Assembly (NCBI GenBank): GCA_958009085.1
Contig: OY253679.1
Coordinates: 310,001 to 374,000, forward strand
Length of the DNA: 64,000 nucleotides
Reading direction: 5' to 3'
Source: Protoeuglena noctilucae
Lineage: Eukaryota
This document shows, piece by piece, positions 10,930 to 55,900 of this stretch (positions are counted from its first letter, which is position 1; the number at the start of each line of letters is the position of its first letter). The translations under genes and the position numbers were made by a program. The notes beneath the pieces are model-generated. The model was not told the DNA's origin, did not search any database, and saw nothing but the letters and a program-made list of their open reading frames with translations.

Positions 10930-13900
10930 TCAAGACATGATCATGACGTTCCCCCGCGCCGTCTCGAACTGCTCCGCGCGCGCCATGCTGCCGGACCCCG
11001 CGTGGGCCCCGTGCTGCACCATCTTGGCCTCCAGCAGCCGACGGAGACCGCGGATCACGTCCTCCTGAAAGCACAAACACCCGTGGGAAGGCTGAGACGG
11101 ATGCAGCGATTGATCGCACAGCTCAGGCCAGTGGCTGGCACCTTGTATGCGCAGCGGTGCTCAGCTCTACCATCATGGTACCATCATCAGCACGTCAACT
11201 CCCCATATCACTGTCTCCCCTCCCTCTCCTCACCTGCCCCGCCATCGACTCCCCCTGCGCGTCCACGTTCCTGGCCCGCACCTCCAGCTGCGCCTTCTCG
11301 TCCCGGGCACGCTCCAGGCGCTCCGTGAACATGTCCCTCAGCGCCTGCGTTATGGATGGAAGACACTACGTTATCAAGGTAACAAGTAACACTGACAGTA
11401 CCACACGAACATTTGGTGAACATGTCCTTGCATGCCTGGTCGTGAGAGCACTGACACTAACCCTAAGAGAGCTACCCCACCCCACCCCACCCCATCCCTC
11501 ACCTGCACCTCCACCACCCCATCCCCACCCCAGCCCACCCCACCCCACACTCCCACCCCACTCGCCTGCAGCTCCACGGACGACGTCGACGTCCGCGCGT
11601 CCACCAGCCGCACCATCGCGTCCACCCCGGGCTCCAGCGCCCCCGCCGCGTGGTACTGCTGCTCGAACTTGGCCGCCTCCGCCAGCATCCCTGCCACCTC
11701 GGACTCTAGCCCCACGAAGCCGCCCGAGGCCTCGGCCAGGGCGCGGCGGACGTCGCTCTGGGACTGGTCCAGGCGGGCCTGCGGGGGTGGATGTGGAGCG
11801 GGGATGAGAATTGGTGTATGTGGAGTGGGTGGGAGAGGTGTACAGCCATCTTCCCTGCACCCCACACACCTCCCTCCCTCACCTGCAGGTCCAGCAGCGC
11901 CTGCTTGGCCTCCTTCCGCGCCTGGATCCTCGGCACCAGCTCCGCCTCCCTTTCCTTCACCCGCGACGTGATGGCCGCGACCGTCTTCGATATCTCTTCC
12001 AGCATCGCGCCCTTGCCCTCGTCCACCGCCGCCTTCTGCTCGGAAATCTTCTCGAGCCCCGCCTGCGTGTCGGTGTAGCCCTCGACGCCGTGCTCGGCCT
12101 CGGTCCGGCGCACCTCGGCGCGCATCTCTTCCGTCAACGCGCGCAGGGACTCCACCGTGCGCTGGAGGGGGTGGGGTGGGGTGGGAGAGGGCGTGAGTGG
12201 TGGTGGTGGTGTTGGTGGTGGGTGCGTCTATGAATTCATGACGCTAAGAGTGAGCACTGCGAGTTGGGTTGATGCCAGGGTATGCACCCAAGCAAGCGAG
12301 CACATGTCACACAATGACACGGATCACATTTACACATTATCACTCACCTTGAGCACCATGTCTTCAGCCTCGACGTTCTCCACCAGGCGCTTGGCACCCC
12401 GGTACTGCCCCAGCAGCTCCCGCACTTGCACCGCCTTCTGCTCCAGGGCGGCGGGGGACACCTCGGCGCGGGACGGGCTCGACCGAGACTCGTCCTCCGC
12501 GCCGAAGCGACTCTCCACCTCACGCCTGCGGGCGACGCGCGGGACGGGGAGGTCGATAAGGTAGGCCTGAGTTGGGAAGGGCATGGGCTGGGGAAAGGGC
12601 TTGTGTTATGCACCCTAGCCCATCTCATCAGTCCCGCTGCTGCCCCATGCTCCCTGGAAACATCACAGCTGAGTGCCCTCCGTCAACACTCCTCTCATCT
12701 CCCACAACCACACACCGCCTCTCACCTCAGCGCCCTCCGCCGGTTTTCGATCCTCTCCAGCTTCTGCCTCTTCTCCTCGAGCTTCTTGGCCCCCACCCGG
12801 GCCATCTGCGCGTGCGCCCGCAGCGCCGCGAAGGCCGGCTGGGCGTCGATCTCCCCCTGCCGCTTCGAGATGCGCTGCTTCAGGTCCGCCACCGCCGCGT
12901 CCAGGTCGCGCCGCGTCGACACCAGCTGCTCCAGGTCGCCCTCGTCCTTTACGGGGAGTGACAGCGCCTGCGGGCGTGTCGTGTCGTGGGGGTGCAAAAG
13001 CTGTTTGCTATCATTGCGATGAGTTAAGCTAATGCAGTGATGCTACTGACACCCGCGAGTCGGGTGGGAGCCGGGTCGCCTGCTCACAAGCACATGTCGT
13101 ATCTCTGCTCTCCCATCCTCAGCCCCGATAGCTCCTCGCCTGCCCCACCACCCCCACCCTCTCGCAAACGCCCCTCATCCACCCCTCACCTGCCTGAGCG
13201 CGTCCAGCCTCTTCGCCCGCTCGTTCATCGTCTCCAATGCGCGGCCCTGCACTTGCGACCTCAGCTCCTCCACACGCGCGCGCTGCGAGTCCAAAAGGCC
13301 CTGCGCCGACCCCGCCTCCGTCGCCGCCTGCGACAGAGAGCAGAAATGGAACACCAGTTTGAGTGTCTTGTTACTGTGTAAGCCCGTCAAACCTACATGG
13401 CGCCACTTGTCCCTGAACCCCCAGTCAGTGGCAGTCCCACTGCTGGCACTTCACTTCTTTTTCTTGCATAAACTAACTCTAAGCATAGTAACTAACCTCA
13501 TCCACAATCCAACGCGCCCCGCCTCGGCTCACCTTGAGGGCCAGCAGCTGCGCCCGGGCCCCCTCCACCCTGGACCTCAGAGCCTCGGTCTTCTCTCTCT
13601 CGGCCGACACCTGGCCCCGCAGCTTGACCGCCGCTTCCCGGGCCTCCCGCACCGACTGCGCCGCTCGGAGCATCGCCCCGACGTCCTCCCGGGGCACCTG
13701 GCCCTCCACACGCATGCGCACCTGCAGGCGCCATGGCGTGCGCGTGTGACGGGAGGGGTGCAGCTGTCGCGAGGACGCTGGCGCCAAGGCAGGCGCGTCA
13801 GAGCGACAACGCAAGGTCATGAATTTGACGCAGCGAATGCGCAAGCCAAGACATGCTGGCCATCAGCCAGCGACGAGCAAGAGCACTTGCAGCTGTCGAG

Positions 13901-19399: not shown

Positions 19400-22300
19400 A
19401 TGTACGAATATCTTGAATCTCTGCAGCGGGAGGCCCGGGACCGCAAGTCCGACGCCCGTCTGGTGGCGCGGATGACGGTGGACGACCTGCGAGACCGCGT
19501 GCTGCATCTGATGCAGGCGGAGCGGTCGATGAAGCGGGAGCTGCGGGAGAAGGAGGTGCTGCTGATGAGGGCAGCCGCGCAGAAGCAGAGGGCCGAGGCG
19601 AGTCGCGGGGAAGAGGAAAAGCCAGCATGTTGTGTCGCGACGCAAGCGGTGGCTGTTGCAAAGAGCCGTGGGCAGTGACCCTTCCGCCGCCGTCCTCCGT
19701 CTGTCTCCATCGCCATCCTCGGTTCTGTAAGTGCGGGTGTCAGTGAGGGTGTTCCTCTGACGAACTTCCCCCCACCCACCCCGCCCCCGCAGCTGGCCAG
19801 CAAACGTGCCGTGCTGTCGCAGCTGCCCCTCGAGGAGAAGCGCAACTTCCGCGGCCGGGTGGTGGACCTGGAGGCCCGGCTGGCGGACGCCGCGCAGCAG
19901 CTGGCGGCCGCGGAGGCCCGGGTGCGGCGCCAGAAAGACCTCACTGCAGAGGCGGCCAAGCGGGCGTCGGAGAAGGAGGCGCGGGCGCGGGCGGCCGAAG
20001 CGAGGGCGGCGGCCGCGCGCAAGGACCTGCAGGCGCTGCGGAGCAACCCGGGGAAGCGACCGCAGTACGAGGCGAGCGCTGGCGGGGCGGGGCTGGCTGG
20101 GTAGGCGCCTTCGGGCGAGTCGTGGCATCGCAACCACAGCAGTGGTCAGCGAGAGTCTCTCTTCGCCTCCAGCGCTTCCTGTTCAGCGCTTAGGTGGAGC
20201 TATGGCGTTGCGGGGGGTGCGGGGGGTGTTGGCGACACCCAGCCACCGCCCCTACACATGCCACGTTAAGCGTCACTTGACCCACCGTCACCTCTGCTGC
20301 CCTCTCAGGACCTGGCCCGTCGCTATAACGACGAGCAGGCGGAGTCCCGCGAGCTGAGGGAGCAGGTGCAGTATTTGCTGAGGCGGTGGGAGGACCAGGG
20401 GTTGGCCCCGCCGCCGTTGCCGCCCAGGATGCAGGAGCTGGTGCGGGAGAGGAACCAGCTCAGGTGAGGAGACGTGGCGGGGATGGGTTGCAATGGGTTG
20501 CCGATAGATGAGGTGATGAGGGAAGCCGCCGGCACCTCACTCACTCACCCCCGCAGCCGCTACAAGAACTCTCGCCACTCACCCTCCCTCACCGCACCCT
20601 CGCACCCCCTTACGCTCTCCCCCTCCCCTTCTCCTTCACCCCAGGGTCGACAAGCAGCGCCTAGACGCCGAGCTGCGGCAGCTGCGGCTCCGCCTGGGCA
20701 TCGCGACCGACGACGACCTCGCCGATAACGGCGTGCACCTCAGCAACGTGGGCCGGGGCGACGAGGCGTGGGATTTGGAGGAAGTGTTCCTGGCGCGGAA
20801 GCACTACCTGCTCGACCGGGCGACGGGGATGCTGATGAGCGCCGAGGGGCGGTGGCCAGTGCCGGTCGGGCGCATGAAGGACGGCGTGCTGTCGCTTACC
20901 TGGGAGCAGGTGCACCACAAGTTCTTCGAGAAGCTGGACGCGTACATGGGCCAGTCGGGTGCGTCGCTGCGGGAGGTGTTTCAGGCGGTGGATGCCGATC
21001 GGTCCGGCAGCGTGGGAATCGAGGAGATGCGGCGGCTGGTGGCGCACCTGATGCCCGACGCGGGCAGGATGGTCCCCGAGGCGCTCATGTTGATGCTCGA
21101 CCGGGACGGGAACGGCCAGATCGAGTACCAGGAGCTGGTGGACGGGCTGCGGGAGATTCTGGCGACGCGCCAGTCCGTGGTTTCGGGCACGGGGGCGGCG
21201 GAGGAGGCGCTGGCGAAGGTCGCGGAGTTCGTGAAGGGGAACCGGGAGAGGGCCCGGCAGGTGACGGGGTGGGGAGTGATGTGAGGGGTTGGGGGGTGTA
21301 GACCAGGTAGGTGAAGGGGTGGTGTGAGTGGGGGTGGGGAGATGTGTGAGGTGCTGGGTGAGGGTGAGGACTACCAGGCGGGTGAGGGTAGCAAGTGGGA
21401 TTGAGAGTGTTCAGTGGGGTTGTTATTGATGAGGGCAGCAGGGCTGGTGGGGGCGTATTGACAAGGGGTGTTGGTGAGAGCGAAATCTGTTAATACGTAT
21501 TTTATATGTATTCACACGTATTAACGAACAATTTGATTCGTCGACATCGTCGTTCCCCTTCGCAGATCTTCGACGAGCTGGGCGGCGCGGACGACGGGGA
21601 GGTCTCTCTTTCCGAGGCCATCCGAGCATTGGTGCCCCTGCTGCGGCAGATGGGGCGCGAGCTGACGTGGGTCGAGCGCACCACGCTGATTAATTTACTA
21701 CTATTATGGGACGCCGATGGGTCAGGGACCATCTCTTTTGCCGAGTTCAGCCGCGCAGTCGGGGCGGCACACGTGCGGTACCGGGCGCCCGCACAGGTGA
21801 GGCCTGATGCGTGCGGTTGACGTTGACGTACGGAGTTGGGTTGAGTGGGTGTCTTGTGTTACATGTTCTAAGTTATTTCATTGTAGATGTGTACATTGTT
21901 GCAATTGTTTTACTTTCTTTTAGTAGACACTGTGGTAATTATTAGCAAGACAATTATAATAATCCCCATTGCTTTTCTCCCCTCTCCCAGGTGGAGCAGC
22001 TGCGCGCGGAGCGTCAGAAGGCCGAGGACGCGCGGAGGGCCACGGAGCTGCGGATGCAGCAGCTGGAGAAGCAGTACCGGTGAGGGACACGCTTGATAGA
22101 TATGATAATATATGATAATAACATTAAATTAATAACATATAAATAAATGAAATATCCATAATAATAATATTTGATAATGAATAAATAATCATATATAATA
22201 ATACTGATAATATAATACATTATATAATATATTATACAAGTTACAATCACTAATACCACCCCACCCCATCCCGCCCTTGGCAGGGAGAAGGAGCAGCGCT

Positions 22301-25300
22301 GGCTGATGTCCGACGCCCCCCGCCCGTCCGCCCCCGCTGCCCCCGGCCTTGCCCCCGTGGATTTGGACCCCGCAGCCGCTTCTTCGGTGGACGTGCGGGG
22401 ATTGCAGGCCAAGGTCCGGCACCTGCAGGACCGATATGCCGAGGTGCAGAGGGCGGAGCAAGAGACGCGGGCCAAGGTGCTGCAGGTGAGAGGGTGGGGG
22501 GGGTGGGGGTGGGACAACTGTCGCGGTGCCGCAGGGCGAGTGATGTCAGGGGCAGTTGGTGTGTGGAATAGAGATGAAAGCGGGGGTGGCTATTTGACGA
22601 TGAGCATGGCATTTTTTTGGTACTCGTATCAAACTTGTATGAGTATCACGATGTTTGTACTTTGTTGACAAGATCGTTATCATTTTATTACCTCAATTGC
22701 CGTGCAATAGAGCAATATTATACTATATGCACGTAGACACCGCCCCGCCCATGCACCACCCATGCAACATCCATGCACCGTCCAGGCATCGCCCATTCAT
22801 CGCACAATGCCTCTCACCCCATCCCCCCCCCCCCGTTCAGGTGACGGTGGAGCGCGACGAGCTGCAGCGGCTGTACGCGGACGCCAAGGCCCGTCTTTCA
22901 AAGCTCGAGGGCGAGGCTCTGGAGATGCGCAGCGAGGTCGAGGCATTGAGGGACTACCGGCAGCGGTGCGCGAGGGCAGAGCACGAAGTGCGGGAGCTGG
23001 AGGAGAGGCTCAGGTGAGATGGGGTGGATATATAATGTATGTGATCATAAATGTGATATCAACGATGTATGGGTGACTGATGCGGATGTTGATATGGATA
23101 CATATTGGTATATATATGAGCATCAATGTATGGTGGTCGATGGACATAGAGCTGGAGGAGAGGCTCAGGTGAGGGGACGGGGGTGGATATGAATGTATCG
23201 ATAGCCTCGCTGAGTGTCCATCTCGTGTCCTTACCTAACAATTATCCCTCACGTCCCTCACATCACTCCCTCACCTCCCTCACTCCCAGGGACGTGCGTG
23301 GCAAGGCCATCGCTGCCCCAAGAGAGGCGAGGGCAGAGGTGGAGGGGGCGCAGGCGGCATTACGTGACACAGAGGACGTGAACCGTCGGCTGAGGAGGGA
23401 GGTGGAGGTGCTGAGGGGGGAGGTGGCAGAGCTGAGACTCGGGAGGGGTGGCGGTGGCGGTGGTGTGGGTGGTGCGGGGATGGGTGGCGGTGCGGGTGCG
23501 GGTGCGGGTATGGGTGGTGGTGGCATTGCGGGTGCGGGTGTGGGTGGGCCCCTGGCAGCGGCGATGGCGGCGGCGGCGGGCGGGGCGGCGGTGGCGGCAC
23601 AGAGGGCGGGCCTGGCGCCGCATGAGCTGCAGGCCTTGAGGAACGAGGCGCAGCTGCTGCGGATGAAGCTGCGGCAGAGGGAGGTGAGGGGTGGGTGTGG
23701 GTGTGGGGGACGGGGATGGGTAGATGTAGAGAGGTGAGGGGTGGCGTGAGTGTGGGGGGTGGTGGTGTCAGCAGTGGTTGTGTGAACTTATGAGCTCCAT
23801 GGGCCTATTGAGGGTCTCAACTTACAACGTCCTTTGCTGTTCAAACCAAACCAATTGCAATCCACCCACTCTACCCCCCATCCCTCCCCCTTAGGTGGAG
23901 TTGGAGGCCGCGCACGACAAACTGGCGGTTTACTTGCAGTTCGAGCGACGGGGTGCGCGGGGACTGGAGCAGATGGGGGTGGAGTCTGCGGCGAGGGTGG
24001 GGGTGGACGACATGGAGAAGACCAAAGAGCAGCTGGTGTACGAGCTGAGGGTCATGCGGTGAGTGGCGTGAGTGATGGCAACTGATAGCAATGGGTGTAT
24101 GAGCTAAGAGTGATGCGGTGAGTGGGGGTGGTAGCAGCGATGCGGTGAGGGGCATGAGTGGCTCAGGCCATGTATGTGGGAAAGAGCAAGGATCACACCC
24201 AAAGCGCCACCACCTTGCACGCTCCTATTCAAACCGCCCCTGCCGACCCCTCGGCCCCAGCGACGAGCTGAGCCGGGTGGAGATGGAGGTGGGCAAGCTC
24301 CACGAGATGCTGGGGCACAAGGACGCGCAGATGGCGCAACTGCAGAGGCACGCCGACCAGCTGCAGGCAATGCACCGGGTGACGGTCGAGGTGAGCGTGA
24401 CTGGGTTGTATGATTTGAATGATAGATGCTGTAGTGATTGACTACACAACCTGCAGGCCATGCACCGGGTGATGGTGGAGGTGAGGTGGTGGCTGGTGAT
24501 ACCACAGATTCGCTCACTGCCACCCTTATCACCACCCCCACCCCCCCCCCACATCCACCCCAGGAGACCCGTGCCGAGCGCGAGGCCCTGTCTCGCCGCA
24601 TCGACTCCCGCGACGAGCACATCCGTCGATTGGCCGAGAAGGAGGGCCGCTATGGCGTCCCCGGCCGGGCCAGGCGCGTTTCTGGCGCCAGCGACACGGC
24701 CGGACTGGCGGACAACGAGAACGTGCTGGAGATGGAGGCGAGTGGTATACGGGACGTGACGTGATGGATTGCAACGGTCGAGACGATGTGCTAAGGAGAT
24801 GCAGCAAGTCGTTGCTGGCGTGGCTGTAACTGTAAGTGTTACTGACGCTCACTCTTGTCATCCACCACTCCCACTCCCTCTTATCCAACACTCTCATTCC
24901 CTTCCCACCCCACCCAGATCGCCGAGGCCTCCCTCGACCCCTCCGTCCCCGCCCCCCCCTCGGGCACCTTCGTGGCCGTGGACTTTTACCGCCACGCCAC
25001 TGTGGTGTCCTCCGTGGGACTCGGATCGAATCCCAGGTACGGATCCACGCTCCAATTCATCGTGGAACCTTCGCTGGACTTTTTGCGGCACCTGGATGGC
25101 GCGGCTGCGAGGGTCGACCTTTGCCAGCCCGACGGGTTCGGGTTCGCCACCCTGGGAAGGGGCCTGCTGCCGCTGCGCAAGTACCTGGAAACGGCCTTGC
25201 GGGGGCAGGCGACCACGCCCGTCACGCTGTACGTGGATGTGGTGGGGGCGGACCGGAAAGCGGTGGCAAGGGTGCGGGTGCGGGTGCGGATGGCGCGGCC

Positions 25301-36951: not shown

Positions 36952-38499
<1,548 letters not shown>

Positions 38500-38748: not shown

Positions 38749-40634
38749 ATGCATACGGCGACTCCGTCCCACCACCGGCCGGGCCGGGCAGGAGGGGGAT
38801 TATCGGCGGCCCACTTATGGTACATGGTGCGGATCGGGGCCGCCATCGCTGAGCGTTCAGTTGTTGAATCCATCAACATACGCGTTAGGAGGCGCGAACG
38901 TGTGCGCTGCGATGCCTTCTCGCGGCCCCACCTGCACCCATCGCCCCCACCGCCCGCAGGCCATCCTCGCGCTGCTCGTGCCGTTTTTCGTCATCTCCCG
39001 GTACGGGCAACGGAGCGAGGAAGCCCAGGAGCTGTGCAATTGCGAGTGCGACGCGCCGTCGCGGCCCAGGGACGACGGATGCCTGCGCGTATTGCAAAGC
39101 ATGACGAGCGCCCGCTCCGACCACGGAAGCCCGGCCTACGTGGCGCCGGAGGTCCCTCACGCCATCGCCACGCTCCGCGCCACGCGCCAGGTGAGTGCCG
39201 GGACGCATCGCACATGGCAGCAAAGCAAAGCACGACACACTTCCTACGGTCGCGCGAGGCTTCTCTCGCAGGAACTGGAGTACACCGCGAGCATCATCGA
39301 CGTCAAGCCATCCACCATCTCGCCCGACATGTGGGGGGCCTTCGCCAAAGGCGAGCGGTGCCCAGCTGCGCATGCGTGTAGCTCCTATCGACAACGATCA
39401 TCTATCCCATAGCTCTGACTCGACATATCGCAGTGGACCTCCCGGCCCTGACGTTCCTGGGCACGTACATCGGCGACATCTTTGACCTCGACACGTTTGA
39501 CGACCACGTCGACCCCAGCCTCTACTACTACTCCTTCGCCGTGCACCGGTGGGTAGTGTGAAGCGAGGGTGTCAATCCACACTTTTTGACAATTCCAGCA
39601 GTGCCGCGCCTATTTCAGCCACCGACCCACTATCCACACCCCCGCCAGCGCCGCACCTCTCACCCCCACTCTCCACCCACACCCCCCCGCAGTGCCGCGC
39701 GCAGCTTCCCCCCCGCCGTCGACGACGTCGATTCCTGGGAAGCCGCGTATGGGTTCGATTCCTACGACCTCCTCGTCCCCCGCCTCCCGTTGGACCCGAG
39801 GGGCGCCGACTTCATCGATGGCAACTTCAACGCCACGCCCTTCGTCAACGAGGCGCCCCCGGGGACTCCCTACAACGTCATGTCAGGCACGTTACCCGCA
39901 AGCAATTATCAATCTCATCCCCTGCAAGGTTGACACCCCGCAGTGTCGTCGCATGCCTGCATGTCACACCTCGCCCATGTCACGTCATCCTCACATCACC
40001 CATAGACCTGAGGCTGACCACATGCCTCACTTGCACCCCCCGCAGTCTCATCCTATGCCTACGATCTCCACGGGCCCCCCACCGAGGTCGACGGTGACCG
40101 TGCGATTGTGGTGGAGTTCTACACCTGCCGGCCCGTGGCCGCGGGGGAGGAGCTCTTCATCAGCTACGGCCAGGGAGTGAGTGCGCGTGATTGCAAGCGA
40201 CTACTAGCCGTGGTCACATCTATTGATAAATGTGCTGTCCATCAGCTGTTCATGGCGAGGGAGTGAGTGCGCGTGCTTGCCTTTGACGCCAGCAATGGTC
40301 ACACACACATGCTGTGCCCCATAACAGCTCAATGCCTCATGCCCCATGCTCATCATCGCCCTCTCATGCAGTATTCCCGTGACTATCCGGTCAACTCGGA
40401 CCTGGGGGAGTGCGCCCTCGACAAGGAGCTGGTGAGCACTGCTATTGCACCGCTTTCTAACCCAACGCCGGACTGGCTTACTTACGCCCACCCACCCACC
40501 CACCCACACACACAATGCGGGGTGGCAATGGGTGTGAGTGAGGGCAGGGGAACCCCTGCCCTTGCTCCCCGCCCTCGCAGTACATCTCTGCCAAGGGCGG
40601 CCCGGCTTGCAGGGTTCTGGCGAGCGCGAGCTGA
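38749..40634 (+). CDS. SET-domain protein with N-terminal signal anchor, 8 exons
   Basis: Spliced: MHTAT..HLWYM|AILALLVPFFVISRY..VKPSTISPDMWGAFAK|VDLPALTFLGTYIG..TPFVNEAP..VEFYTCRPVAAGEELFISYGQG|YSRDY. GxFA, FVNE and GEELFISY are SET motifs. Confidence 0.75.
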
Positions 40635-40824: not shown

Positions 40825-43800
40825 TCACACCCGCGTCGGCAGCACCACCCGGCTCTCCAGCCCCTCTCCCCCCACAAACTCCACATGCACCGCCTCCCTC
40901 CGCCCCCGCCCCCGCCTCCCCGCATCTCTTGCCACCAACTCCCATGCCGACCCCATCTCCCTCTCGCTCCGGTCGCCCCACGGCCCCAGCGACGCGAAAG
41001 CGGACCCCAGGGACCCCGCCGCGCCCACCAGCGCCCGCAACCCCACCCCCGCCGCCGCCCGCCCCTGCCGCCCCTTTCGCCCCCCATCCAGCCCCGCCCC
41101 CGCCCCCTCCCTCGCCTCCGCCACCTCCTCGTGCAGCTCCCCCGCGAAATTGGCCCGCTCGCTCGCGAACAGCGCCAGTCTCAATCGGTGCCCGGCTGAA
41201 AAGGCGTATGACACCGGCATGAGGCTGAAGGACAGGCAGACGACCTCCCCGGGGATCGAAGGCTCGACGTCCGATTTCGAAAAGGTGTGGAAGACGGTGC
41301 CGGGGACCCACCCGCCCGCCCGGGGGTCGTTCTTAGGTGGGGCGGGGTGGGAGCGGCGGTGGGCGGCTCGCAAGGCACCCTCGCCCACATAGGTGGGGGC
41401 GTGGCTGCGGGGGGTTTCGATTTAAATATGTGAGAATGGGTGGATAAGGAATCGATAAGCTGTGCGCGCTTCTCCCTCAGTTGCCATCCACCTCATTTGC
41501 AAACGCCCCATCCACATCGTATTTACTCAGCCACCACATCTCACCCCACCCCACTCCCTCCCCCCCCCCATCACCCCTCACCCCGGCGCCTCGTCCAAAA
41601 GCACCGCAAACACCGCCACGTCTCTCTTGTCGCATTTGAGGTGGACATCCACTTGCACAGACCCCATAACGCGGAGGGTGGATGCGAGGGGTGGGGTGCA
41701 GAAGGACGCAAAGCCGGGGGAGGTGAAGACTGTGCCGTAGTGCATCTGTGGTTGGGGGTGATAAGGGGGGGTGGTGGTAGTGAGGGTGGTGGTGCTGATG
41801 AGGGTGGAGGTGGTAGTGAGGGGGAGGTGAAGACGCGGCCGTAGTGCATCTGGGGTTGGGGAGAGTGGTGGTGGTAGTGAGGGTGGTGGTGGGTGTTGTT
41901 TGATGGAGTGACTAGGGGTGACGAATCGCAGTGACAACTCAATGATCTAACAGACCTTCAGCAGTACTCTCACCTTGACCAATGCGGGTGTTCTTACACA
42001 ATTACAGATTTCCATTGCTTACCTTGACAAACGAGAGTGCCGTGCGATAAAGCCAGTGCCAAGTACTTAATATAAATATACACATGCCATTGCTCAAAGT
42101 CTGACCTTGACGAATGGGAGTGCCACCAGTCCGATGCGGTTGCGCACCGGCAGCTGAGGGACGCGGCTGGTGTCGTGGGAGACAGAGAAGGGGGCAGTCG
42201 GGGGTGTGGGTGACAATGAGTGGCACGACTTGGAATGTAAAGACTGTGGGGGAGGGGAGGGTGTAGTGACATGGGGCGTGGCAGCGACGAGAGGTGTGCT
42301 GATAAGGGCACACTGCCTTGTCTGCTGCCTGCGACCCCCACTGCACCCACTCCCACGCCCCTCCCCTCTCGCCCCTCACCTCCCCCTTCCCCATCCACAC
42401 CACCTCCTTCCCCCGCCCCTGCAGCCCTCCCTCCGCATCCACCTCCCCCCACCCGCACGCCCCCGCTGGCCCCATCTCGTACACCATCACGCGCCGCCCC
42501 GGACGGCTCAGGTCCAGCGGGTACCCAATCGAATCCGCCGAGCTGCCCTTTTTCAACGGCTCGCCGCCGCGGCGCCGGGACCAGGCCTGGGGGGCAGAGG
42601 CGGGGGCGAGCGTTGAGCGAGGCAGTCGGTTGATAGCGGCGGTTGCAACAGTCATTTCGCCAACACCACACCACATAACAGCTGCAGCAGCTTTCGAGCC
42701 GTCAGGCGTTGTCAACCAAACCCCGTCAACGCCCCTCATCTCCCACCTGCACCCCTCAGCAACCCCACCCATCACCCACCCTCACCACCCTCTCACCTCC
42801 CACCCCCACCCCACCCTCCTCTTAGGCACCGGCGGCGCCCCCTCCGTCCCCGACTCAGGCCTCGCCTCCATCCACCGCACCAGACACAGTGCGGCATCCA
42901 GGGGCAGTGCCCTCGTGCTGTCGGGAACGTGCTTTGCCAGGCACCGCCTCACGAACCGCATCAGGGGGGGGATCTGGGGGAAGGTGTTCCATGCGGGGTG
43001 CAGGCCGTGCGACTGGGGAGGGGGGGAACAGAAGAGCACGTTTGCTATTGAATAATGATGGAGATGTGGATGGTTCAGTACTACTAGACGCGGGCGCTTG
43101 CTGCGACTTGCAACCTATTAACAATCAATCCATTTTCACTCACATCCATATTCAACCACCCTCTCTCAACCACTCGCCTGGTGTTGCGCCATTAACCCCC
43201 CGTGCCCCCACGGCCCCACGACCAGCTCGCTCAGGTCCCCTTTGCCCACACGGCGATAGATGGCCTCGGACGCACCCACCGTGATGTCCATCCAACCCGT
43301 CTCCACATACACGTCCAAGTCCTGAGAGTGATGTATAGTAAATGATTATAGTGCTTGACTGATACGAAAGAGAACTGCACATTTATATGGCCAGCCTGTC
43401 CGCGAACAGGCACAGTCACCCATCACCATTACCATCATTCATCACTGCAATCATCATAACCATAGTATCTCACCATCTCCCCCAGCCTGTCTGCAAACAG
43501 GCACGCGCTGCCCGTCCAGAAGGGGCGGTTGTCTGAGGATGGGGCGGGGTCGTCCGCGCACCTCACATGGTCCAAATCGTCGCGGAAGGTCCAATTGTGA
43601 CGAGAGGCAGTGGCCTCCACCACCTGATGGGGAAGGAGAGGGGGAGGTGGCATTTGCGATTGAGTACGGAGAACAAGCAGGTCAATAGATGTCCATGGAT
43701 GTTGTCAATCATGACTTACCCCACGGCAACGGTTGTCCGTGAAAGAAAGGGGTTCAGTCATGATCCTCTATCCTCCCCTTCACCTCAACTCACCCTTTTC

Positions 43801-45996
43801 AACGCCACCCGTTTGAATCCCCACATGCTCATCTGCTTCCTATCTATAAGTCTCCAACGTGCTGATCTTCCCTATCTACAAAACTCACCCTCTTCGACCC
43901 CACCCGTTTGAACTCCCTCTTGGTCCCCCGATCCATGGAGCGGTAGGGGCGGAAGGCGCGGTCGTCCGTCACGGTGTCTCTGCTCCCGTCGACCGATGGG
44001 GGGTCGCCTGAGACCAGGCCGGACGCGACCAGGGGGGAGGGGACCTGAGTGAGATGAAGAGGTGGGGTGGCGTTAACTTTGCGTAGAGAGGGTGGGGTGG
44101 GGGTGGGGTGGGGGTGGGGGGGTGTAGGTGAGGGGTGGAGGTGACCAGGGGGGAGGGGACCTGAGTGAGATGAAGAGGTGGGGTGGCGTTAACTTTGTGT
44201 AGAGAGGGTGGGGTGGGGTGAGGGTGGGGGTGGGGGGGTGTAGGTGAGGGGTGGAGGTGACCAGGGGGGAGGGGACCTGAGGAGGAGAGATGGGGAAAGG
44301 TGGAATGAGTATATAGTATGGAATAGTATGGATTAGGGGTAGGCTGAAGGGTAATTACAATAGGCATGTGCTTGACGCACTCTCTCTCTCTCTCTCTCTA
44401 CCCACCACTCTCTCACACATCACCCCCTCTCACCTCGATCATGACGGGCGTGTGCTTGAGGCACTCTCTCTCTCTACCCAACCCCATTACCACCCTCATC
44501 TTATCCTCATCCACCCCAACACCCTCACTTAAAACCTACCTCGATCATGACGGGCGTGTGCTTGACGCACAGCGCCGTGCACCCGAGCCTGCGCGAGTCC
44601 ATGACGGTGGTGAACTGGGACCAGCGGGAGGGGAAGGAGCGGGGGGGGACGCCGCCGGGGAAGGACACGTCCGAGTACAGGTCCCAGAAGGGGTAACTGC
44701 GATCAATTAGATGGAAGTATGTGTAGTCCAGTTAGTGAAACCTGGGAACCTCACCACAGCGCCACCTCCACCACCACCCCACCACCTCCCCCCTCACTCA
44801 CCACAGCGCCACCCCCACCACCCCCTCACCACCTCCCCTCACTCACCGCAGCGCCACCCCCACCACCCCCGGGTGCCCGAATGCCGCGGTGTGCAGGGCA
44901 GCCGTGGCGTCGTAGCTCATCCCGAACAGCACCGCACGCCCATCACTCCATGGCTGCGCGAGGGCCCACATCAGGACCTGGGGAGGGAGAGATGGCGAGG
45001 CAGGTGGAGTGGGGTCAGGGCAGTGTGAGAGTCAACATAAGGACATGAGAGAGCACGACACCCATCCCCACCCAAACCCACTCGTCCCCACCACCCACAC
45101 CCCCACCAACCACACACCCGCACCCACACCCACCCGCACACCATACTGACTCATCCCCATCACCCACACCCACACCACCCCCACCCACTCACACCTCCAG
45201 GCTGTCGCACCGCTCGCTGGGGTGCCACGGGTGCCGCCAAACGCCCCCGGACGCCCCCGTGCCGCGGACGTCCATGCTGACGACGGCCATGCCGGCTGCG
45301 ATGGCCAGCTGCTTTGCCTCCAAATTGACCACATCGATGGGCTTGTCACCGACGAACGGGATCCAACGCAGGTACTTGCGGGCCGTCATCGAGCGCCAGT
45401 AGCGCGTCTGCAGGTGGAGGAATGGAATATAATCGCGATGCGCGGGTGTGCGGGGCGCGCGGAGCGAAGCGCGCGCGCAGCGGGTCAACGTGCCTGGTGG
45501 AAGAGGACCGGGAGGCCGCGGGACCGGTCGACGCGCTCGCTGGACGGCAGGAAAACGTCGACGGCGATGTTCACGCCATCACGCATGCGCACGTGGAACG
45601 TCTGCGCGAGGGAGGAGGCGCGGGGATGGCCGCATTATTGCACAGCTGGCACCAACACCGGGGCAGCGCGAGCGCGGTCCCGGAAGGACCCGCGAGGAGG
45701 TGAAGCGCAACTATGAATCCAATGCGATCCATCGCAACGCCGGCAAAGCAGACGGGCACGACTGCACGGCGCCACGAAAGGTCCACCCTCCCCGGCAGTC
45801 CCCGGCGAGGCGCGGGGCCACACATTCGCATCGTGACGCGGCGGACGGGTGCGAGAGCATCGAACCTGCCGTGTAGATTCCAAAGATTGCCCAAGCTCGC
45901 CTGGAACTCGCTCTCATTCCATATCTTAATGCGCTCTGCTAAGCTGGGCGTCCCCGCCACTTCGGACGGGTCCCAATGCCCGTCGAGGCCCTTCAT
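40825..45996 (-). CDS. CocE/NonD family serine hydrolase (peptidase S15 fold, PepX_C domain), multi-exon
   Basis: VRMRDGVNIAVDVFLP..LPVLFHQ|TRYWR, VVSMDVRGTGASGG, WALAQPWSDGRAVLFGMSYD (nucleophile), GWMD (acid), LVVGPWGH (His), FTSP..LRVMGSVQVDVHL, PVSYAFSAGHRLRLAL. Confidence 0.88.
44027..44282. repeat. 116-nt-period tandem repeat spanning a 3' splice site of the CocE gene
   Basis: gaccaggggggaggggacctgag starts at 44027, 44143 and 44259. Confidence 0.9.
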
Positions 45997-46366: not shown

Positions 46367-48219
46367 ATGGCGATGGCCACGGCCTCTCGGCCACTCTCGG
46401 CATCCTTGTGTCCTGATCGAAGATGTCGTAGCCTCCACGCCGCGTTGCGGGGGCCAAGTCGTCCCGAATCGCGCCCGCGCTGCCGCATTGCCGATCCGTT
46501 GACACGCAGCCCCGCATCGCCGGCCGCGGCCCCGCGCCCCGAGGTCTCGACTGCGCAATCCGATTCGGCGGCGAATGAAGACAACTTCGAGGCGTTCGTG
46601 CAGGACGTGCAGCGCAGCATCATCGCGGAGGCGGAGGCGCTCGAGGGGAAGTTTGGGAAGGCGAGGGCTGCGCGCTCAGCGCATCTGCAGCCATGCAACT
46701 TCATGAATTGGTGCAGTTTGACATGGAATTGCCATCGACCGTGCTCTGCGCAGGGAGCGACGTTCCGGCACGACAGATGGGACCGTGACACGCGTGACGC
46801 AGGATTCGGCATCACTTCGGTTTTGGAAGACGGGGCGGTGCTCGAGAAGGGCGCCTGTAACGTGACGGTCGTCAGGGGGGTCCTCTCTGCCCAGGTAATC
46901 ATGTAAGGGCGTATTGGCTGTGGTCGCCAACTGTGCCATCACCAGCCAAGGCCCGTACCGCAGTGCCACTCCATCGCCGCACACCACACACACAATCACA
47001 CAACACCCCATCACTCTTCGTTGCCCCCGCAGCGTGCCCAGGCCATGAGCTCCCGCGGCCGCAGCAGCATCGACCCTGCCGGTGGTCAGCCGTACAGCGC
47101 GGCTGCCATGAGCCTCGTCTTCCACGCCAGGAGTCCGCTGGTCCCCACGCTGAGGGCCGACGTGCGTGTGTTTGAGGTGGCGGGGAACAGGTGAGGGTGG
47201 GGGCGGGGGTGGCAGTGAGGGTGGCAGTAGGGGTGGTGTTGAGGATGGTAGTGGGGGTGGCAGTGGGGGTGAGGGTGAGGGTGGCAGTGGGGGTAGCAGT
47301 GAGAGTGAGGGTGACGGTGCCATGCCTCGTTGCCTCTGCCCCCGCACAGGTGGTTCGGTGGCGGCTGCGACCTGACCCCCTCGTACGTGTATGAGGACGA
47401 CTGTCGCGAGTTCCACCGGTTCTGGAAGGAGCTCTGCGATCGGCACCACCCGGACCTGTACCCAGAGTACAAGGAGTGGTGCGACCGGTAAGTGGGAGGG
47501 GGAGTGGAAGGGAGAACAATGAGAGGGTAGTGCGATTGGTGAGCGGTGATTGCGGTAAATCGCTTGACATCTGTGACTCCGTGCAACCACTCCCAGTTAC
47601 TTCTTCATCCCCCACCAACACCCCACAATCCCCCCCATCCTCAGTTACTTCTTCATCCCCGCCCGCGGCGAGCACCGCGGCGTGGGGGGCATCTTTTTCG
47701 ACGACCTGGACGCCACCGACCCGCGCGGGTTCGATCCTCAGCAGTTCACGAAAGAGGTCGCGCGCGGCGTCGTGGCGTCCTGGGCCCCCATCGTGGAGCG
47801 GCGGCAGCGGGAGGGGTACACCGACGATCAGCGGCAGTGGCAGCTGCTGCGGAGGGGGCGTTACCTGGAGTTCAATCTACTGTACGACCGAGGGGTCAAG
47901 GTGACGCCCACCTTGACATGGAGAGGGGTAGCTGGGGTATTATGGTATGCAAGGGGCGCAGCATGTGCACATCTTCACACATCCGCCACCAAGCTATCCA
48001 CCATCATCTGACAAACACGCTTGCAGGAGAATAATGAGAATACTAATGTCATCATGCACTCGTTATTTATCGCAGTTCGGCCTGGACGGTGGCCGCGTGG
48101 AGTCGATCATGGTGTCAGCCCCGCCGCTCATCGCCTGGAGATACCGAGCGGAGCCGGAGCCGGGGACGCCCGAGCACGACTGCCTGGAGGTGCTGCGGAA
48201 ACCGAGACAGTGGGTCTGA
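46367..48219 (+). CDS. CPOX: Oxygen-dependent coproporphyrinogen III oxidase, plastid-targeted, 6 exons
   Basis: [102 protein letters not shown]. Confidence 0.96.
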
Positions 48220-48491: not shown

Positions 48492-50988
48492 TCAGTGCCT
48501 CATGGCACGCTCCGTGGCGGGCTGGGCAACATGCATGGAGTCCCCACGGCCAACACGGCCAACAGGCCCCCATCGGGACTCGTCCACCGCCGGCGTGGCA
48601 GCAGGTGAGGTCTCAAAAGCGGCCGCCAGCTCTGCAATGGCCGACGCAGCAGCAGACACCGACTCAGTCGCAGGTGCCGCCTTTGCAGCAGCCTCTGGCT
48701 CAGCAGCAGGCCCTGAGGCCAAAGCAGCCGCCAGCTCCGAAATGGCCGACTTGGCCGCAGACACCGACTCAGCCGCAGGTGCCGGCTTGGCAGCAGGTGC
48801 CGGCTTGGCAACAGCGGCTGCCTTAGCGACAGTCGGCGACGTGGCAGCAGGGTTCGGCTGAGCAACTGCAGCAGGCTTGGCAACTGCAGCAGGCTTGGCA
48901 GCAGCTGCCGGCTTGGCAGCCGCTGCTGGCTCAGCCACAGGCGCTGGCTCAGCAGCAGGGGCCGGGTCAGCGAAAGCCGCTGTTGCAGCACCAGGCTTGG
49001 AGTCCCCAGCCGGAGCCCGCTCAGCAACAGCCGCCTGCTTGGCAGCAGACACCGCCTCAGCAACAGGCGACTCCGCAAGTGCGGCGGGCTTGGCCGCAGG
49101 CACAGGCTCCGCAACTGCAGCAGGCTTGGCAGCAGCCTCCGGCTTGGTTGCAGGAGCAGGCTCAGCAGCAGGGGCTGATGCGACAGCAGGTGCGACAGCA
49201 GGTGCGACGGCAGGCTCCGACGTGGCCGCAGGTGCGGGCTCAGCCACAGCCGCCTGCTCAGCGACCGCCACAGGCTCCTCGACAGGGGCCGGCTCAACGA
49301 CAGCCGTTGGCTGGGCCGCAGCTGCTGGCTCAGCAACAGGGGCCAGCTTGACCATCGTCAAAGTCTCCTCCCCAGATGCGGCTGCCTTGAGTTTGCTGAG
49401 CAGTGTCGCTGCTGCTGGGTCCTCCAGATACGCCTCCCATCGGTCCACGACATCCGAAGAGCCATACCACACCTCGCTATCCCCTGCACAAGCAAGAGAT
49501 CAGCGATCATGGCACACGTGCCGTCTGCTTAGCTCAGCTCAAGCATGCCGCAGCGACACAAGACCAGCCAAGCAGCAAGCGCCGCATGTCACTTATGCTG
49601 CAGCGTACAAACGCAGTGAGTAGTACTATGCATTCGTACACCCATAGCACCCAGTTAGTGCTATCGAGGCGCCACGACTCACTGGTGGTCGGTCCGTGGT
49701 ACACCCCGTCCAGCGCCAGGCTCTCTGCCCCCGGCAGTGCCAGTGCCGCATCCACGGGTATGACCCCGTCCCCCCACGCGTCGCCCTGCCCCGTCGTCAG
49801 CTCATAGGACTGAAAAGCCAGGTCCGGCACGAGCCCCACCAACTGCGGGCGGGGACATGAAACGAGTGGTATGCCAGGAGATAAGTAAACTGCGGGTCTG
49901 GGACCCAAGGGAGGTGGGTCAGTCCCTGGGCACAAGCAGTGCATGTATATGGCAGATAACACAACACATCCCTGCTTCGATCCTCGCCTTGGTCCCCTGT
50001 GCGGCCTTCCCCGCGACGTTGACGTACCGCACCCCCGGCGCGGCCAGCCCGGGGTAGTGCTGGGCCACGAACGCGAGGTTTCTGGCAGCTACGCCCTCCT
50101 CGCTGACGTGGGGGGTGCCCAGGCACACCAGGGTGTGCACGGCGGGCCCGGCACCGTAGGTCTTGCCCCAGTAGGGCTCGCCCTTGCCCAGCCAAATGCG
50201 TGAGATCCAACCGGAGGCGCTGTGGGCAACCACGGCAGCGCGGAGGCCGCTGTAGGCCGGGCGGGGGCCCGCGGTCAGGTCGGTGAGGGATGAGAGGCCG
50301 TGGGAGGCGCCCTGGGAGGAGGGGATTGGGGGAGGAGTGTGGTGAGGGGTGACCAGAAGTAACGCAAAGCGAGGGGAAGTGCATGTCTGGTGAGTAGCAC
50401 CCAATCTCACCTTGGAGGCGTTCGCCATCTCCACAGTCCAGTCGAACACGGAGTAGCCACTCGGGAAAGCGATCTCGTCCGGTGGTGGCTGCGGCGTCAC
50501 TCCCAGGGACACCTGGCCGAGGTACTGGGCATAGGCGCGTAGAAGGGCATCGAGTGCGAAGTCGAGGCGGTCCAGCGTGGGCCGCTGGGATCGGCCACCG
50601 ACGGTCGGCAGCCACTGGAACCACCGGATGGGAGCCCCGGTGGCGAAGTAGCCGCGCGCGCGGAGGTCCTGAGGGAATACGCATGTCGCGTGCCACGTTA
50701 CGCGAGAGGATGTCTTGCCGAACTTGCCGAACAGAGCTATGAACATTACATTATGAGGTAAGTATCATCCAACTATATCCCGCTCACCTTGACCAGAGCG
50801 TCGTATTGGTGGCAATCGGTCAGGAAACCCGGGGCCACGAGCACGGCGCCACGGTCGTACACTCGGAGCCCGCGCGCGACGACGACACGCCTCTGTGCGC
50901 GATATGCACGCAACGGAAGCGCAGGCGGGGTCCGTGGGCCGGGGAGTGAGCCCCGCGCGGCTGCGGAAGCAGATCGACACGCAGCCAT
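48492..50988 (-). CDS. PGAP1-like alpha/beta hydrolase with probable transit peptide and long Ala/Pro-rich C-terminal tail
   Basis: AVLVAPGFL, WFQWLPTVGGRS, VVAHSASGWISRIWLG, TLVCLGTPH, WGDGVIPVDAA, DGVYHGP, WYGSSDVVDRW; the last exon encodes AEPA/AKPA repeats. Confidence 0.8.
48590..49345 (-). repeat. Coding minisatellite (A[AV]A[EK]PA-like units) in the hydrolase tail
   Basis: Repeated gcagcaggcttggca / ggctcagc units; near-duplicate blocks at about 48614-48680 and 48720-48785 (AATESVSAA.SAI.ELAAA). Confidence 0.8.
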
Positions 50989-52716: not shown

Positions 52717-52939
52717 CGCCACGGCGGGCGCAGGACGCAGGCAATCGACGTGTCAGATGATTTAAGCCGCGATTGAAATCCGGCTTGGCACGACGCAAAT
52801 TGCGCACTATGAGGTTCCAGACACCCGTCACGGAAGACCGTTTGCGCATAACTCTGCACTACGGCCCGCTAGGGACCCGCACTGCGCACACTCTTGGAGC
52901 GACGAGCCCGGACAGGCAAGCTCCCCCGGCCTACCGGTC

Positions 52940-55900
52940 ATGGGCGGAGTCAAGAACTTAGAGGCCAAGAAGAAGGCGGCGAAAGTTTTTGCGAGCGCAG
53001 GCGGCGGGGGGACGAAGGCGAGGCTGCGGCCAGGCATAGCAGCCGGGTTGGCGAAGAGCGCGCGCGGAATCGGCGGCGCGGGATCGGATAGGGTGCAAAC
53101 GACGTAAACGGTGCTACTTGATCCATCGCAGGGCCCCGCGATCCTCGATAAGCGCAACCAAGAGCTCCCTTGCCCGCACTGCAACCGCGTCTTCAAGCAG
53201 AAGCAGCGGCTCGACCAGCACGTGCAGAGCCAGCACGCGGACGAAGCCGCACCGAGCAATGCATCCGCGAAGCCCGCCGAGGCCGGGCCGTCCGGATCGG
53301 GCGCGAGCGCGGCCCCCAAGCCCCAGCTCTTCGATGTGGGCTCACGAGGGGGCTTCTTCACGCAAAAGACGCCGCGGATGATGCTGCACGAGGTGATGTG
53401 CGCGAGCGTGGAGGCGATGCCACGACATGCAGCGCAGCGGGCCTGTAGAGGACCTCCTGCGCGTCGATGCAGCCAGGGCAACCTCGTGAGGACTTCAGAC
53501 CAAAGACAACATCCATACCCTGTCCTCTGGGACTGCGCAGTAATGCCGTGTTTACCAATTCTATAGTTCCTGTTTTCACCTCTACCTCGCCGCTCCCCCA
53601 ATGCAGTGGTGCCAGGGCCAGAAGCGCCCGACTCCGCGCTTCAAGCCCAAACAGGAGCCCGACGGGACGTGGAGCTGCAAGGTGGTGCTGCCAGACATCA
53701 AGGACAAGGATCGTGATGTGGTGGTCTTCTATGCCGGACAGGGCAAACCGGGGGCGCCCGATGAGGGCGAGGCGTTGCAGCGGGCGGCGGTGGCGGGGCT
53801 GTTTGCGACGCAGGGGGACCGGTCGCTGGAAAGGGTGCTGCCCAAGGAGTACGTGGACCAGTGGCTTGCCTTGGGGGAGGAGAAGAAGGTGGGGGTAGTG
53901 GGGGTAGGGGTGGCTAGGTGGGATGAGTTCGGGGGGTGTAGTGAGGGAGGGTGATGGGTGGTGGCGTGGCTGGGTCATGTAGTGGGCAGTGCTTCGTTCA
54001 CGTCTATCGTATGCCATCTCCTGTCCCTCGCTCGCCCTTCTGGGGCCAACCCTTGTCCCCTTGCATCGCTGCTTACTCAGGAGAGGGATGCGAGAGAGGA
54101 GGGGGGGAGAGAGTGCGAGGCACGCAGGGCCGAGGCCGAGAGGCGGCGGTTGGAGAGGGAGAGGCAGGCACAACGAGTGTACCTGAGCGCGGATGCGGCA
54201 GCGACAATCGAGGACAGCTTGAGAGGGGCGGGCATGGTGGAGGGCGGGGTGGCGGCGGGGGTGGCAGTGGGGGCGGGGGCGATGGTGGAGGGGCTGGGGC
54301 CGCTGGTGAAACGACTGCGGTGAGTGGGGAGTCGGGGCGGTGGTGATGCGGTTGCAGTGAGTGGGGAGTGGGACTGTGGTGGTCAAGTGCTGGCGTAAGT
54401 GATGAGGGCTGGTTGTCTCACACCTGCCATGGTCTAATCATCTTAAACTTTTCACCTGCATCGTCGCAGTCAGTTGGGATTCGAGGAGCGAGACGCGGCC
54501 AACGCCGCCGCCGCATCGGCAGCCACCGACCGAGCGACCGATTGAGCGGAGGGGAGCGCAAGTGGGGACATTGCCACCACATCCCTTGCACCGCACCCCT
54601 CCGACGCGGCTGCGTTTGAGGCGGCGCTGCAGCGGGCGGTGGAGTGGGCGTGCGTGCACGTGCCAGAGGAGCGTTTGCCAGAACAGTTCGCGCCGGTGTC
54701 GGGAGGCAAATCACGGGTGCGGGGCGATGATGTGGGGCTGTAGGGTTGCATGGCTGCGGTGAATGGTCCGTGACTGTCAGTGTCAGTCACGACTGTCGTC
54801 CTGTCTCCTACCCCATGCGCGATCAATGGTCACAGTCGCACCCCGATAGGCATCGCTCTCGCCATCTCCTCACCCCCTCCCCTCCCCAACCGCCGCAGTG
54901 CTGCACTGGTCTGGGGGTGCTGTCAGAAACGCAGGCGTGGGTGCCAGAAAAGCGGCAGCCGGGGACGGGCCCGGCACTGCCCTGGCGGCGGCTCTCTGGC
55001 AGTGCAGATATGAGGTGGGGGAAATTCGCAAGGCAGTGGGTGCCCTGCGGAGTCACGGGGTGGTCATACCCGGGGACGGTGTTGAGCGTGGCAACAAGGG
55101 TAGCGGCGAGGGTGGCAGTGGGGGTGATGGCGCTGCTGCAGATTCCGGCTGTGTGCTCGTGGCCTGGGCTGCTGGCGTGGCTGCGTGCGCGGGCGAGGGT
55201 GACGGTGACGGTGCAGCGAACAACGCGGTGGCTGAGGCGGTGGGGCGTGTGAGGGCGTACCAGGACGGTCTTAGTAAGGGCGATGGCAGTTGCAGTGCTG
55301 AGGGTGGCGACTGGCCTGGGGAGGCGTGGGCAGACGACACGGCAGCACTCGTGGCCATTTTCGGAGACGAGGCGGTTGTCTCCTCGAATGGACTATCAGT
55401 GCGGGTGACGTTGGACGTCATTGGGGACGCTGCGGCGTCGACGGGGGGTGGTGTACTGGCACCGACTCTGACGCTGGCGCTGCCAGAGGGCGCGTGTTAC
55501 CCAGACCACCCCCCGGCGGTGCTGCTGAGCGGCGTGGGCGTCGGCGCGGCCCGGGTGGTGCTGCGCCGCGTGCTGGCGCGCGCGCGCGCGGGAAAGGGTG
55601 CGCCGATGGGGTTTGACCTTGTGACCGAGGCGAAGGAGGCGCTGGCGGTGGCGAGGGAGGGCGGGGATGGGGCGGGTGTGGGAGAGCGCGAGGGGGCGGG
55701 CGAGGGGTTGGAATGGGGAGATGGGGCTGTGTCAGTGGCTGGCTCTGTGGCAGGGACGAGCACAGTTGGGGCGAGCGTGATGGATGGCGACACAGTGGTA
55801 TTGGACAGTATGGAAGACATGGCTGCGGACTTGTCTGAGGAAGACGAGGGAGATGGGGTGGATGAGAGGGGGAGGGCGGGCCGTGGGCGAGGGAGGGGGG

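Follow-up and report, generated by a model that had tools for sequence, protein, structure and literature searches.

Junction-spanning direct repeats inside introns of a 64-kb window of Protoeuglena noctilucae are most likely by-products of frequent local duplication

Transposon-derived introners are found in Micromonas, Aureococcus and dinoflagellates, where they form sequence families. Under the Rogers model, for which an RdRp gene of potato is reportedly the case in point, an intron is said to be gained by tandem duplication of an exon segment containing AGGT; this model reportedly predicts that the 3′ end of the new intron matches the end of the upstream exon and that its 5′ end matches the start of the downstream exon. 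We analyzed a 64-kb window (the whole stretch of DNA under study, positions 310,001 to 374,000 of contig OY253679.1, assembly GCA_958009085.1) from Protoeuglena noctilucae in which sequences overlapping exon-intron junctions recur, splice site included, inside the same intron. These copies, termed junction echoes, were present in about one intron in ten and are most likely by-products of frequent short duplications that are tolerated only in introns. A relevant precedent is the 37-bp minisatellite of human F7 intron 7 (Borensztajn et al. 2006, PMC1557585). Its first unit lies across the donor of exon 7, and the identical downstream pseudo-donors are functional yet silent, the upstream-most site being taken. 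Li et al. 2014 (PMC4202315) attributed the internal direct repeats of new Daphnia pulex introns to staggered double-strand breaks that occurred repeatedly, and Rogers and Bendich 2025 (PMC11782384) interpreted short direct repeats near intron borders as footprints of insertion. In the literature searched there was no genome-wide description of junction echoes, nor of same-side copies affecting about one-tenth of introns on both sides, although such a report may exist in subscription journals or in papers beyond the search.

Intron borders were predicted with a small hidden-Markov gene finder of our own, for which the window served as the training sequence. It returned 118 introns (median length, 165 nt) in 18 genes; intron-level counts are based on 117 of these introns unless stated otherwise. 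Echoes were detected in 12 of the 117 introns, on 14 junction sides, within the 64 kb. A sequence-only reading of the window had listed 14 echoes, of which 12 were clear local direct repeats when the sites were read and scored and two were weak (11561/11498 and 54316/54353). The 12 confirmed repeats were 17 to 139 nt in length and 82 to 100% identical, with one copy overlapping the exon-intron junction and the other located 37 to 380 nt inside the same intron. Two further donor echoes (42125/42042 and 43912/43817) were found beyond this list. Ungapped self-matches scoring at least 14 within intron regions numbered 74, as against 2.4 expected from 1,500 cross-intron pairs, excluding chance as the source of the echoes, and Tandem Repeats Finder (TRF) independently reported the tandem cases. 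The sites are given below, together with comparisons to the RPGRIP1L-like ortholog of a relative (on metagenome contigs of 73 to 74% G+C; L001, 187-4392), which consists of one uninterrupted frame of 1,402 codons with 46% identity end to end, to five homologs of the predicted CocE/S15 peptidase, and to contigs assembled from an independent marine metagenome run (X5).

22994 to 23198, plus strand: donor echo in RPGRIP1L-like intron 23014-23289; the exon end with GTGAG (22994-23040) recurs at 23149-23198, identical at 25 of 25 letters and extending over about 47 nt with gaps, across 108 nt of unrelated, A+T-richer spacer; the intronless ortholog has no indel at the junction, and use of the echo donor would shift the frame and lead to a stop.
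24035 to 24160, plus strand: donor echo in intron 24059-24260; junction 24035-24066 has copies at 24094-24125 and 24140-24160, each with GTGAG (28 of 32 and 19 of 21 letters identical); ortholog collinear.
24361 to 24485, plus strand: donor echo; junction 24361-24395 recurs at 24451-24485 (32 of 35 letters identical), the copy carrying its own CAG acceptor and GTGAG donor, with 24457-24480 as a potential in-frame mini-exon of 24 nt.
25621 to 26040, plus strand: acceptor echoes in the 616-nt intron 25401-26016; junction 26006-26040 is followed inward by four successive copies (25878-25906, 25808-25832, 25724-25761 and 25621-25650), the two oldest having lost the AG; ortholog collinear at 26016/26017; X5 DNA contig identical over 25800-27463.
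26197 to 26353, plus strand: 71-nt tandem array of 2.2 units (TRF), starting 9 nt upstream of the GC donor (26206) and repeating CAG/GCGAGG; gapped match of 83 nt at 81%; ortholog collinear; X5 contig identical.
40158 to 40330, plus strand: donor echo in intron 40177-40371 of a SET-domain gene, a diverged tandem duplication of two units of about 86 nt; junction 40168-40194 recurs at 40254-40280 (25 of 27 letters identical); X5 contig identical over 39649-40472.
41716 to 41861, minus strand: acceptor echo in CocE intron 41746-42105; junction 41716-41758 recurs at 41820-41861 (72 nt at 82%); homologs collinear; X5 contig identical.
42023 to 42125, minus strand: newly found donor echo in intron 41746-42105; the exon end with GTCAGA (42106-42125) recurs at 42023-42042 with GTAAGC (16 of 20 letters identical), and a third TCAAG/GTGAGA lies deeper in the intron; homologs collinear.
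43391 to 43504, minus strand: exon-only echo; the exon piece 43482-43504, whose end is 9 nt short of the intron 43322-43473 donor, has its copy at 43391-43413 (20 to 21 of 23 letters identical).
43787 to 43912, minus strand: newly found donor echo in intron 43624-43888; junction 43882-43912 recurs at 43787-43817 (28 of 31 letters identical); homologs collinear.
44027 to 44281, minus strand: 116-nt tandem array of 2.2 units, each of 98 nt of intron 3′ end and 18 nt of exon (TRF, 97% matches); intron 44045-44539 has three identical CTCAG/GTCCCC acceptors, with a 139-nt match at 97%; homologs collinear with the last acceptor.
44363 to 44570, minus strand: donor echoes in intron 44045-44539; the exon end with GT (44538-44570) recurs at 44432-44464 (31 of 32 letters identical) and partly at 44363-44380; homologs collinear with the first donor.
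44750 to 44870, minus strand: tandem array of 2.6 units of 45 to 47 nt (TRF, 91 to 92% matches), spanning the donor of intron 44697-44846, with three GTGAG donors; homologs collinear with the first donor.
47594 to 47660, plus strand: acceptor echo in CPOX intron 47488-47644; CAG and 16 exon letters (47642-47660) recur at 47594-47612 (19 of 19 letters identical); use of the 47594 acceptor would insert 16 residues in frame.
54316 to 54369, plus strand: weak donor-proximal repeat at intron 54320-54469, with 4 exon letters only (16 of 17 letters identical; score, 14).
11498 to 11577, minus strand: listed IFT81 echo; the 14 of 17 matching letters are within the cross-intron background.

Two kinds of echo were apparent. 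In the tandem arrays, which start in the exon and have units of 45 to 116 nt, the first unit spans the exon-intron boundary (44750-44870, 26197-26353 and 44027-44281, all reported by TRF, and the diverged 40158-40330). The second kind consists of short, near-identical copies around an unduplicated spacer, with unrelated sequence separating the non-tandem pairs 22994/23149, 44538/44432, 43882/43787 and 47642/47594; these look like staggered breaks filled in with filler, or like a short duplication after which the region expanded further. The exon parts of the copies ranged from 4 to 31 nt, and copy boundaries were at no fixed distance from the junction. Repeats confined to intron interiors were also present (introns 11345, 16906, 44978, 47191, 58107 and others). 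Among the echoes, one of 11 on the donor side was exon-only, and none was separated by an exon from its junction so as to lie in the neighbouring intron; a model in which whatever sequence is nearby is copied at random was rejected, as it would predict many echoes of both of these types. Repeats in exons lay wholly within coding sequence; for two of them the period was read, and it was a multiple of three in each (12 and 18 nt). A long coding tandem repeat with an 18-nt period, consisting of about 10 or more units with 32 self-matches, is located at 48589-49350 in the minus-strand gene 48503-50988. Its position in frame inside an exon indicates that the duplication process acts in exons too when the reading frame is kept.

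Artefacts of assembly or of haplotype merging are a hardly credible source of these repeats. DNA of the window was abundant in marine metagenomes from another study, and the X5 contigs were identical to it over 25800-27463, 39649-40472 and 41525-44083, with 0 other letters and 0 gaps. Seven echo sites are covered by these stretches, making assembly error unlikely there (44363-44870 and 47594 are outside the X5 pieces listed). Moreover, the copies differ from each other by substitutions, as real diverged repeats do. An artefact would be consistent with breaks in the short-read X5 contigs at some arrays (44083, 25810 and 30528) and with a single X5 joint, 41803/41780, that departs from the window sequence. 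In the contig in question, 41803 is followed by 31 other letters and then by a return to 41780, which suggests a copy-number or sequence variant of an 18-nt array (41766-41822) in the natural population.

The echo-bearing junctions of the RPGRIP1L-like, CocE and CPOX genes were assessed separately against homologs. The predicted RPGRIP1L-like protein (1,463 residues) aligned end to end with the single open frame of the relative, with no indel at 23013/23290, 24058/24261, 25400/26017 or 26205/26475. The predicted CocE/S15 peptidase was collinear with its five homologs across all 11 introns, including both ends of 44045-44539 and 41746-42105 and also 44697-44846, 43624-43888 and 43322-43473. Pfam confirmed the CocE, CPOX and SET assignments, and the Coprogen_oxidas profile passed from 164 to 166 over the real CPOX junction (47487/47645). 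In each case checked, the conserved protein is given by the upstream-most donor or the downstream-most acceptor, with support for the outer sites at 11 junctions. Use of an echo site would lead to a frameshift or stop for 12 of 13 donor echoes and seven of eight acceptor echoes (19 of 21 in all), the exceptions being 11345 +63 and 47488 −48. Judged by this homology, the echo sites are presumably silent and the outermost site is probably the one used. Position-weight scores of the echo sites were within or above the range of the real sites, and the echo donor equaled or exceeded the real donor in seven of 14 comparisons. Two differences in CocE were large: the echo donor of intron 41746-42105 scored 3.85 versus 0.65 for the real donor, and the echo donor GTGAGA of intron 44045-44539 scored 6.57 versus 1.43 for the real GTAGGT. 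A metagenome scan with a CocE exon gave no match and a second scan gave one distant relative only (L001-L003); a protein search with CocE exon 42797-43012 was likewise without a match.

It is fairly probable that the echoes reflect frequent local duplication at the DNA level combined with survivorship, as in the F7 minisatellite, at an unusual frequency. Local duplications would be frequent in this genome and could originate from replication slippage, unequal exchange or the fill-in of staggered breaks with or without filler. A duplication across a donor would keep the original donor upstream, and one across an acceptor would keep the original acceptor downstream; provided that the spliceosome still picked the outermost sites, the mRNA would be unchanged and the copy would turn into extra intron. 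An equivalent duplication wholly within an exon would be purged by selection unless it was in frame. Junction copies would, hence, build up as passive and probably slightly harmful decoys that lengthen the intron, mainly in genes with weak selection on splicing accuracy.

This account is supported by the general nature of the self-similarity in introns, which was not confined to junctions (the 74 self-matches described above), by the fact that several echoes are plain tandem arrays that merely start in the exon, by collinearity of the outer sites with the ortholog, the CocE homologs and the CPOX profile together with the harm expected from echo use, by the confinement of exon repeats to coding sequence, and by the absence of echoes on the far side of an exon, in the neighbouring intron. 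A further line of support came from a neutral simulation of duplication and decay, analyzed with the same detector, in which 35 to 43% of detected events were already predicted at junctions and the detection advantage was 1.0- to 1.6-fold. Probes of 20 nt from the 117 introns also gave echoes as often for intron interiors (3 to 11%) as for exon ends (6 to 8%), with values of 1% for probes 40 nt into the exon and 2 to 4% for acceptor-side probes. The echoes are genuine duplications, and the proposal that they lengthen introns was borne out. Junction echoes were found in 10 of the 29 introns of the RPGRIP1L-like and CocE genes versus two of 88 elsewhere (P = 1 × 10−5), a clustering that is not predicted by the neutral model. 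Both genes had a low RNA contig depth, which is a poor measure of expression; clustering in two genes would fit weak selection against decoys.

Several observations weigh against duplication and survivorship as the explanation. Twelve of 17 strong repeat events touched a junction, compared to 4.6 expected for uniform placement within their own introns (P = 1.3 × 10−4). When junction events were assigned higher odds of detection, P was 0.011 at twofold and 0.07 at threefold, and the simulated advantage was only 1.0- to 1.6-fold. Addition of weaker and short-period events gave 14 of 28 versus 6.7 expected (P = 0.002, or 0.12 at twofold odds), such that the significance of the excess hinges on whether the short-period G-rich and C-rich arrays are products of the same process. 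The residual excess was about 1.2- to 2-fold over the simulated share (50 to 71% versus 35 to 43%). An excess at junctions is, therefore, suggestive but not established, and the earlier claim that duplications are concentrated on splice junctions holds weakly, being favored by the strong events and weakened by the wider set and by the simulation; the modest excess is left unexplained by duplication and survivorship. The distribution of repeats is a second difficulty. The share of bases covered by local repeats was 10.5% in introns, 4.2% in exons and 0.6% in intergenic DNA, and there were 29 repeat clusters in 21.2 kb of intron versus one in 9.5 kb of intergenic DNA, a 13-fold difference in density (P = 2 × 10−4) between classes of similar base composition, the intergenic class being a gene-finder call that includes untranslated regions and two RNA-supported introns. 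Such a density in introns is unexpected under purely generic mutation, unless the intergenic DNA is itself constrained. In addition, the echo sites are undegraded, two of them being far stronger than the real donor; the silence of the echoes is deduced from homology and not from RNA; and some very similar echoes (25 of 25 and 31 of 32 letters) flank an unduplicated spacer and are not simple tandem duplications.

Some of these observations would be accommodated if break-and-repair linked to introns or to their ends made duplications preferentially in introns near junctions and so actively grew introns, an explanation that we regard as unlikely. One candidate is damage that accompanies transcription in the G-rich 5′ and C-rich 3′ parts of introns and is then repaired through fill-in or templated synthesis. 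Such a process would be in line with the excess of strong events at junctions and with intronic repeat clusters 13-fold denser than those of compositionally similar intergenic DNA, as well as with the cases that have a repeat, an unrelated spacer and a second repeat, which is the arrangement that staggered breaks with filler would give; the Daphnia model for internal direct repeats in new introns (PMC4202315) is a parallel. Introns were also strongly polar: in the 87 introns of at least 120 nt, bases 6 to 55 were 44% G and 16% C, while the last 50 bases were 41% C and 16% G, and 71 of the 97 internal G(T/C)GAG motifs were in the first 100 nt. Against this explanation, the excess loses significance at twofold odds once the short-period arrays are counted, copy boundaries are variable in their distance from the junction, and the echoes are concentrated in two genes of low RNA depth rather than in well-covered ones, with the reservation on depth given above. 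Specific pairing of 5′ and 3′ intron ends was rejected as a candidate (−39.0 kcal/mol for the ends of the same intron, −37.7 kcal/mol for cross pairs and −36.6 kcal/mol against exon sequence), and the evidence base is 64 kb only. Nothing tested pointed to splicing itself, one of the couplings suggested in the sequence-only reading, as the cause. It is doubtful that duplication restricted to introns and biased toward junctions lengthens introns and seeds full-strength decoy sites in a lineage possessing a gene with 18 to 19 introns that is intronless in a relative; if it did, a mutational mechanism linked to the introns themselves would drive their size and the redundancy of their splice sites.

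Retention of the echoes by selection as decoy, alternative or recursive sites, for example through unproductive transcripts that tune expression, was another earlier suggestion and appears very improbable. The full consensus strength of the echo sites, with half of the compared echo donors at least equal to the real donor, could be taken as a sign of selection, as could the in-frame acceptor at 47594 and the possible mini-exon at 24457-24480. The eight residues that this mini-exon would encode are absent from the intronless ortholog; it could possibly be a newborn in-frame exon that was derived from a junction echo and duplicates eight residues. However, 19 of the 21 echo sites would produce a frameshift or stop, and an identity of 82 to 100% marks the copies as young, so that retained strength is expected without selection. 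Echoes occupy only 12 of the 117 introns, mostly in two unrelated genes, and in intron 25401-26016 the two acceptor copies of greatest age have a decayed AG. Echo donors also lack the preceding pyrimidine tract that recursive sites need: the signature of a pyrimidine tract and AG before the GT was absent, the echo donors following copied, mostly purine-rich exon sequence.

The RPGRIP1L-like gene (19400-27927) has 18 to 19 predicted introns, whereas its ortholog in the relative has none and is without indels at the intron positions, which would mean massive intron gain here or intron loss in the relative. The echoes could then be footprints of recent intron birth or early growth, as in Daphnia neointrons, where internal repeats were present in 55 of 90 new introns versus 100 of 617 old introns (PMC4202315) and with which the high frequency of internal repeats in the window agrees. 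We consider this improbable. The comparison with a single relative would fit loss there as well as gain here; the introns share no sequence family; direct repeats of at least 6 letters at opposite intron ends were found in five introns versus 3.7 expected; and each echo holds intron letters beyond the donor or before the acceptor, so that the splice site predates the copy.

Candidate mechanisms of intron gain were also searched for directly and rejected. An all-against-all blastn comparison of the 118 predicted introns for an introner family gave low-complexity G-rich and C-rich matches and one 12-mer satellite only. For terminal target-site duplications, the number of suffix-plus-prefix repeats of at least 6 letters (five, as above) was close to that obtained by shuffled pairing of the 117 introns. 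For the tandem-duplication signature of the Rogers model, cross-side matches were absent except for one of 14 nt at 33511/33647.

The window has a G+C content of 58 to 73% and is densely packed with intron-rich eukaryotic genes. Metatranscriptome contigs were compared with the gene model: among the 15 RNA joints listed, nine matched predicted introns exactly, four differed and two fell in DNA called intergenic, and none of these joints spans an echo intron. The latter two are probably introns of untranslated regions. RNA joints outside the gene-finder predictions were 28467-28640, 36804-37095, 38270-38414, 35034-35151 and 35834-36188, with 38270-38414 separating a Rab-like gene (37122 onward) from the SET gene, which the model had fused. 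GC-AG introns were very common, 25 of 117 predicted donors being GC, mostly as GCGAG (for example, at 19598, 20072, 24738, 26206, 26559, 30597, 30988, 32774 and 35618). Several GC donors were backed by RNA joints (30748-30988, 32599-32774 and 35536-35618) or by the intronless ortholog. In humans, GC-AG introns account for about 1% of introns (PMC3167603). The 12-nt satellite GTGAGGGTGGCA was present in 6 to 10 copies at 30509-30583 and 47191-47319, within introns of different genes and in opposite orientation to transcription; it begins exactly at the donor in the CPOX intron, and at the 30528 array the contigs from metagenomes stop or are variable. The predicted proteins included some with transit-peptide-like N termini and one of the plastid fibrillin type, features suggestive of a photosynthetic flagellate. 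An assembly gap of 200 N is located at 63727-63926.

Should the frequency of echoes hold genome-wide, this genome would provide a natural set of introns with two to five identical full-strength sites in a row, equivalent to the F7 minigene design for studying spliceosome choice among equal sites and extending it to the donor and acceptor sides. The echoes would also provide a concrete route for the growth of short introns and for conversion of a copied exon end into a new mini-exon, as at 24457-24480, and comparison of introns with intergenic DNA, and of one gene with another, would help to separate mutation bias from selection in the evolution of intron size. If neutral duplication and survivorship are all that is involved, the echoes are an ordinary though unusually visible by-product.

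Among the described systems, insertion footprints and introners resemble the echoes in that exon sequence is repeated in or beside the intron. There, however, the repeats bracket the intron as a target-site duplication, whereas here terminal repeats were at chance levels and introns shared low-complexity matches only. Tandem duplication in the Rogers model likewise adds splice signals and intron sequence, but the echoes are on the same side as the junction and contain pre-existing intron letters. The likeness to Daphnia lies in internal direct repeats that exceed chance, whether or not filler is inserted, that passively lengthen and diversify an intron and that can include a copy of the adjacent exon end. 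The Daphnia exon-intron repeats are 4 to 12 bp and lie at the intron's opposite end, while those described here are 17 to 139 nt, on the same side and inclusive of the splice site; recent intron gain was demonstrated in Daphnia only, and an excess of terminal repeats was not found in the window. The F7 minisatellite shares the anatomy of 44750-44870, 26197-26353 and 40158-40330, namely, a repeat that starts in the exon, with the authentic donor followed by pseudo-donors. The silence of the pseudo-sites is experimental in F7 and is deduced from homology here. The window differs from F7 in having acceptor-side arrays (44027-44281 and 25621-26040) and many spaced, non-tandem echoes as well, and what is a single locus in F7 affects 12 of 117 introns within 64 kb in this genome.

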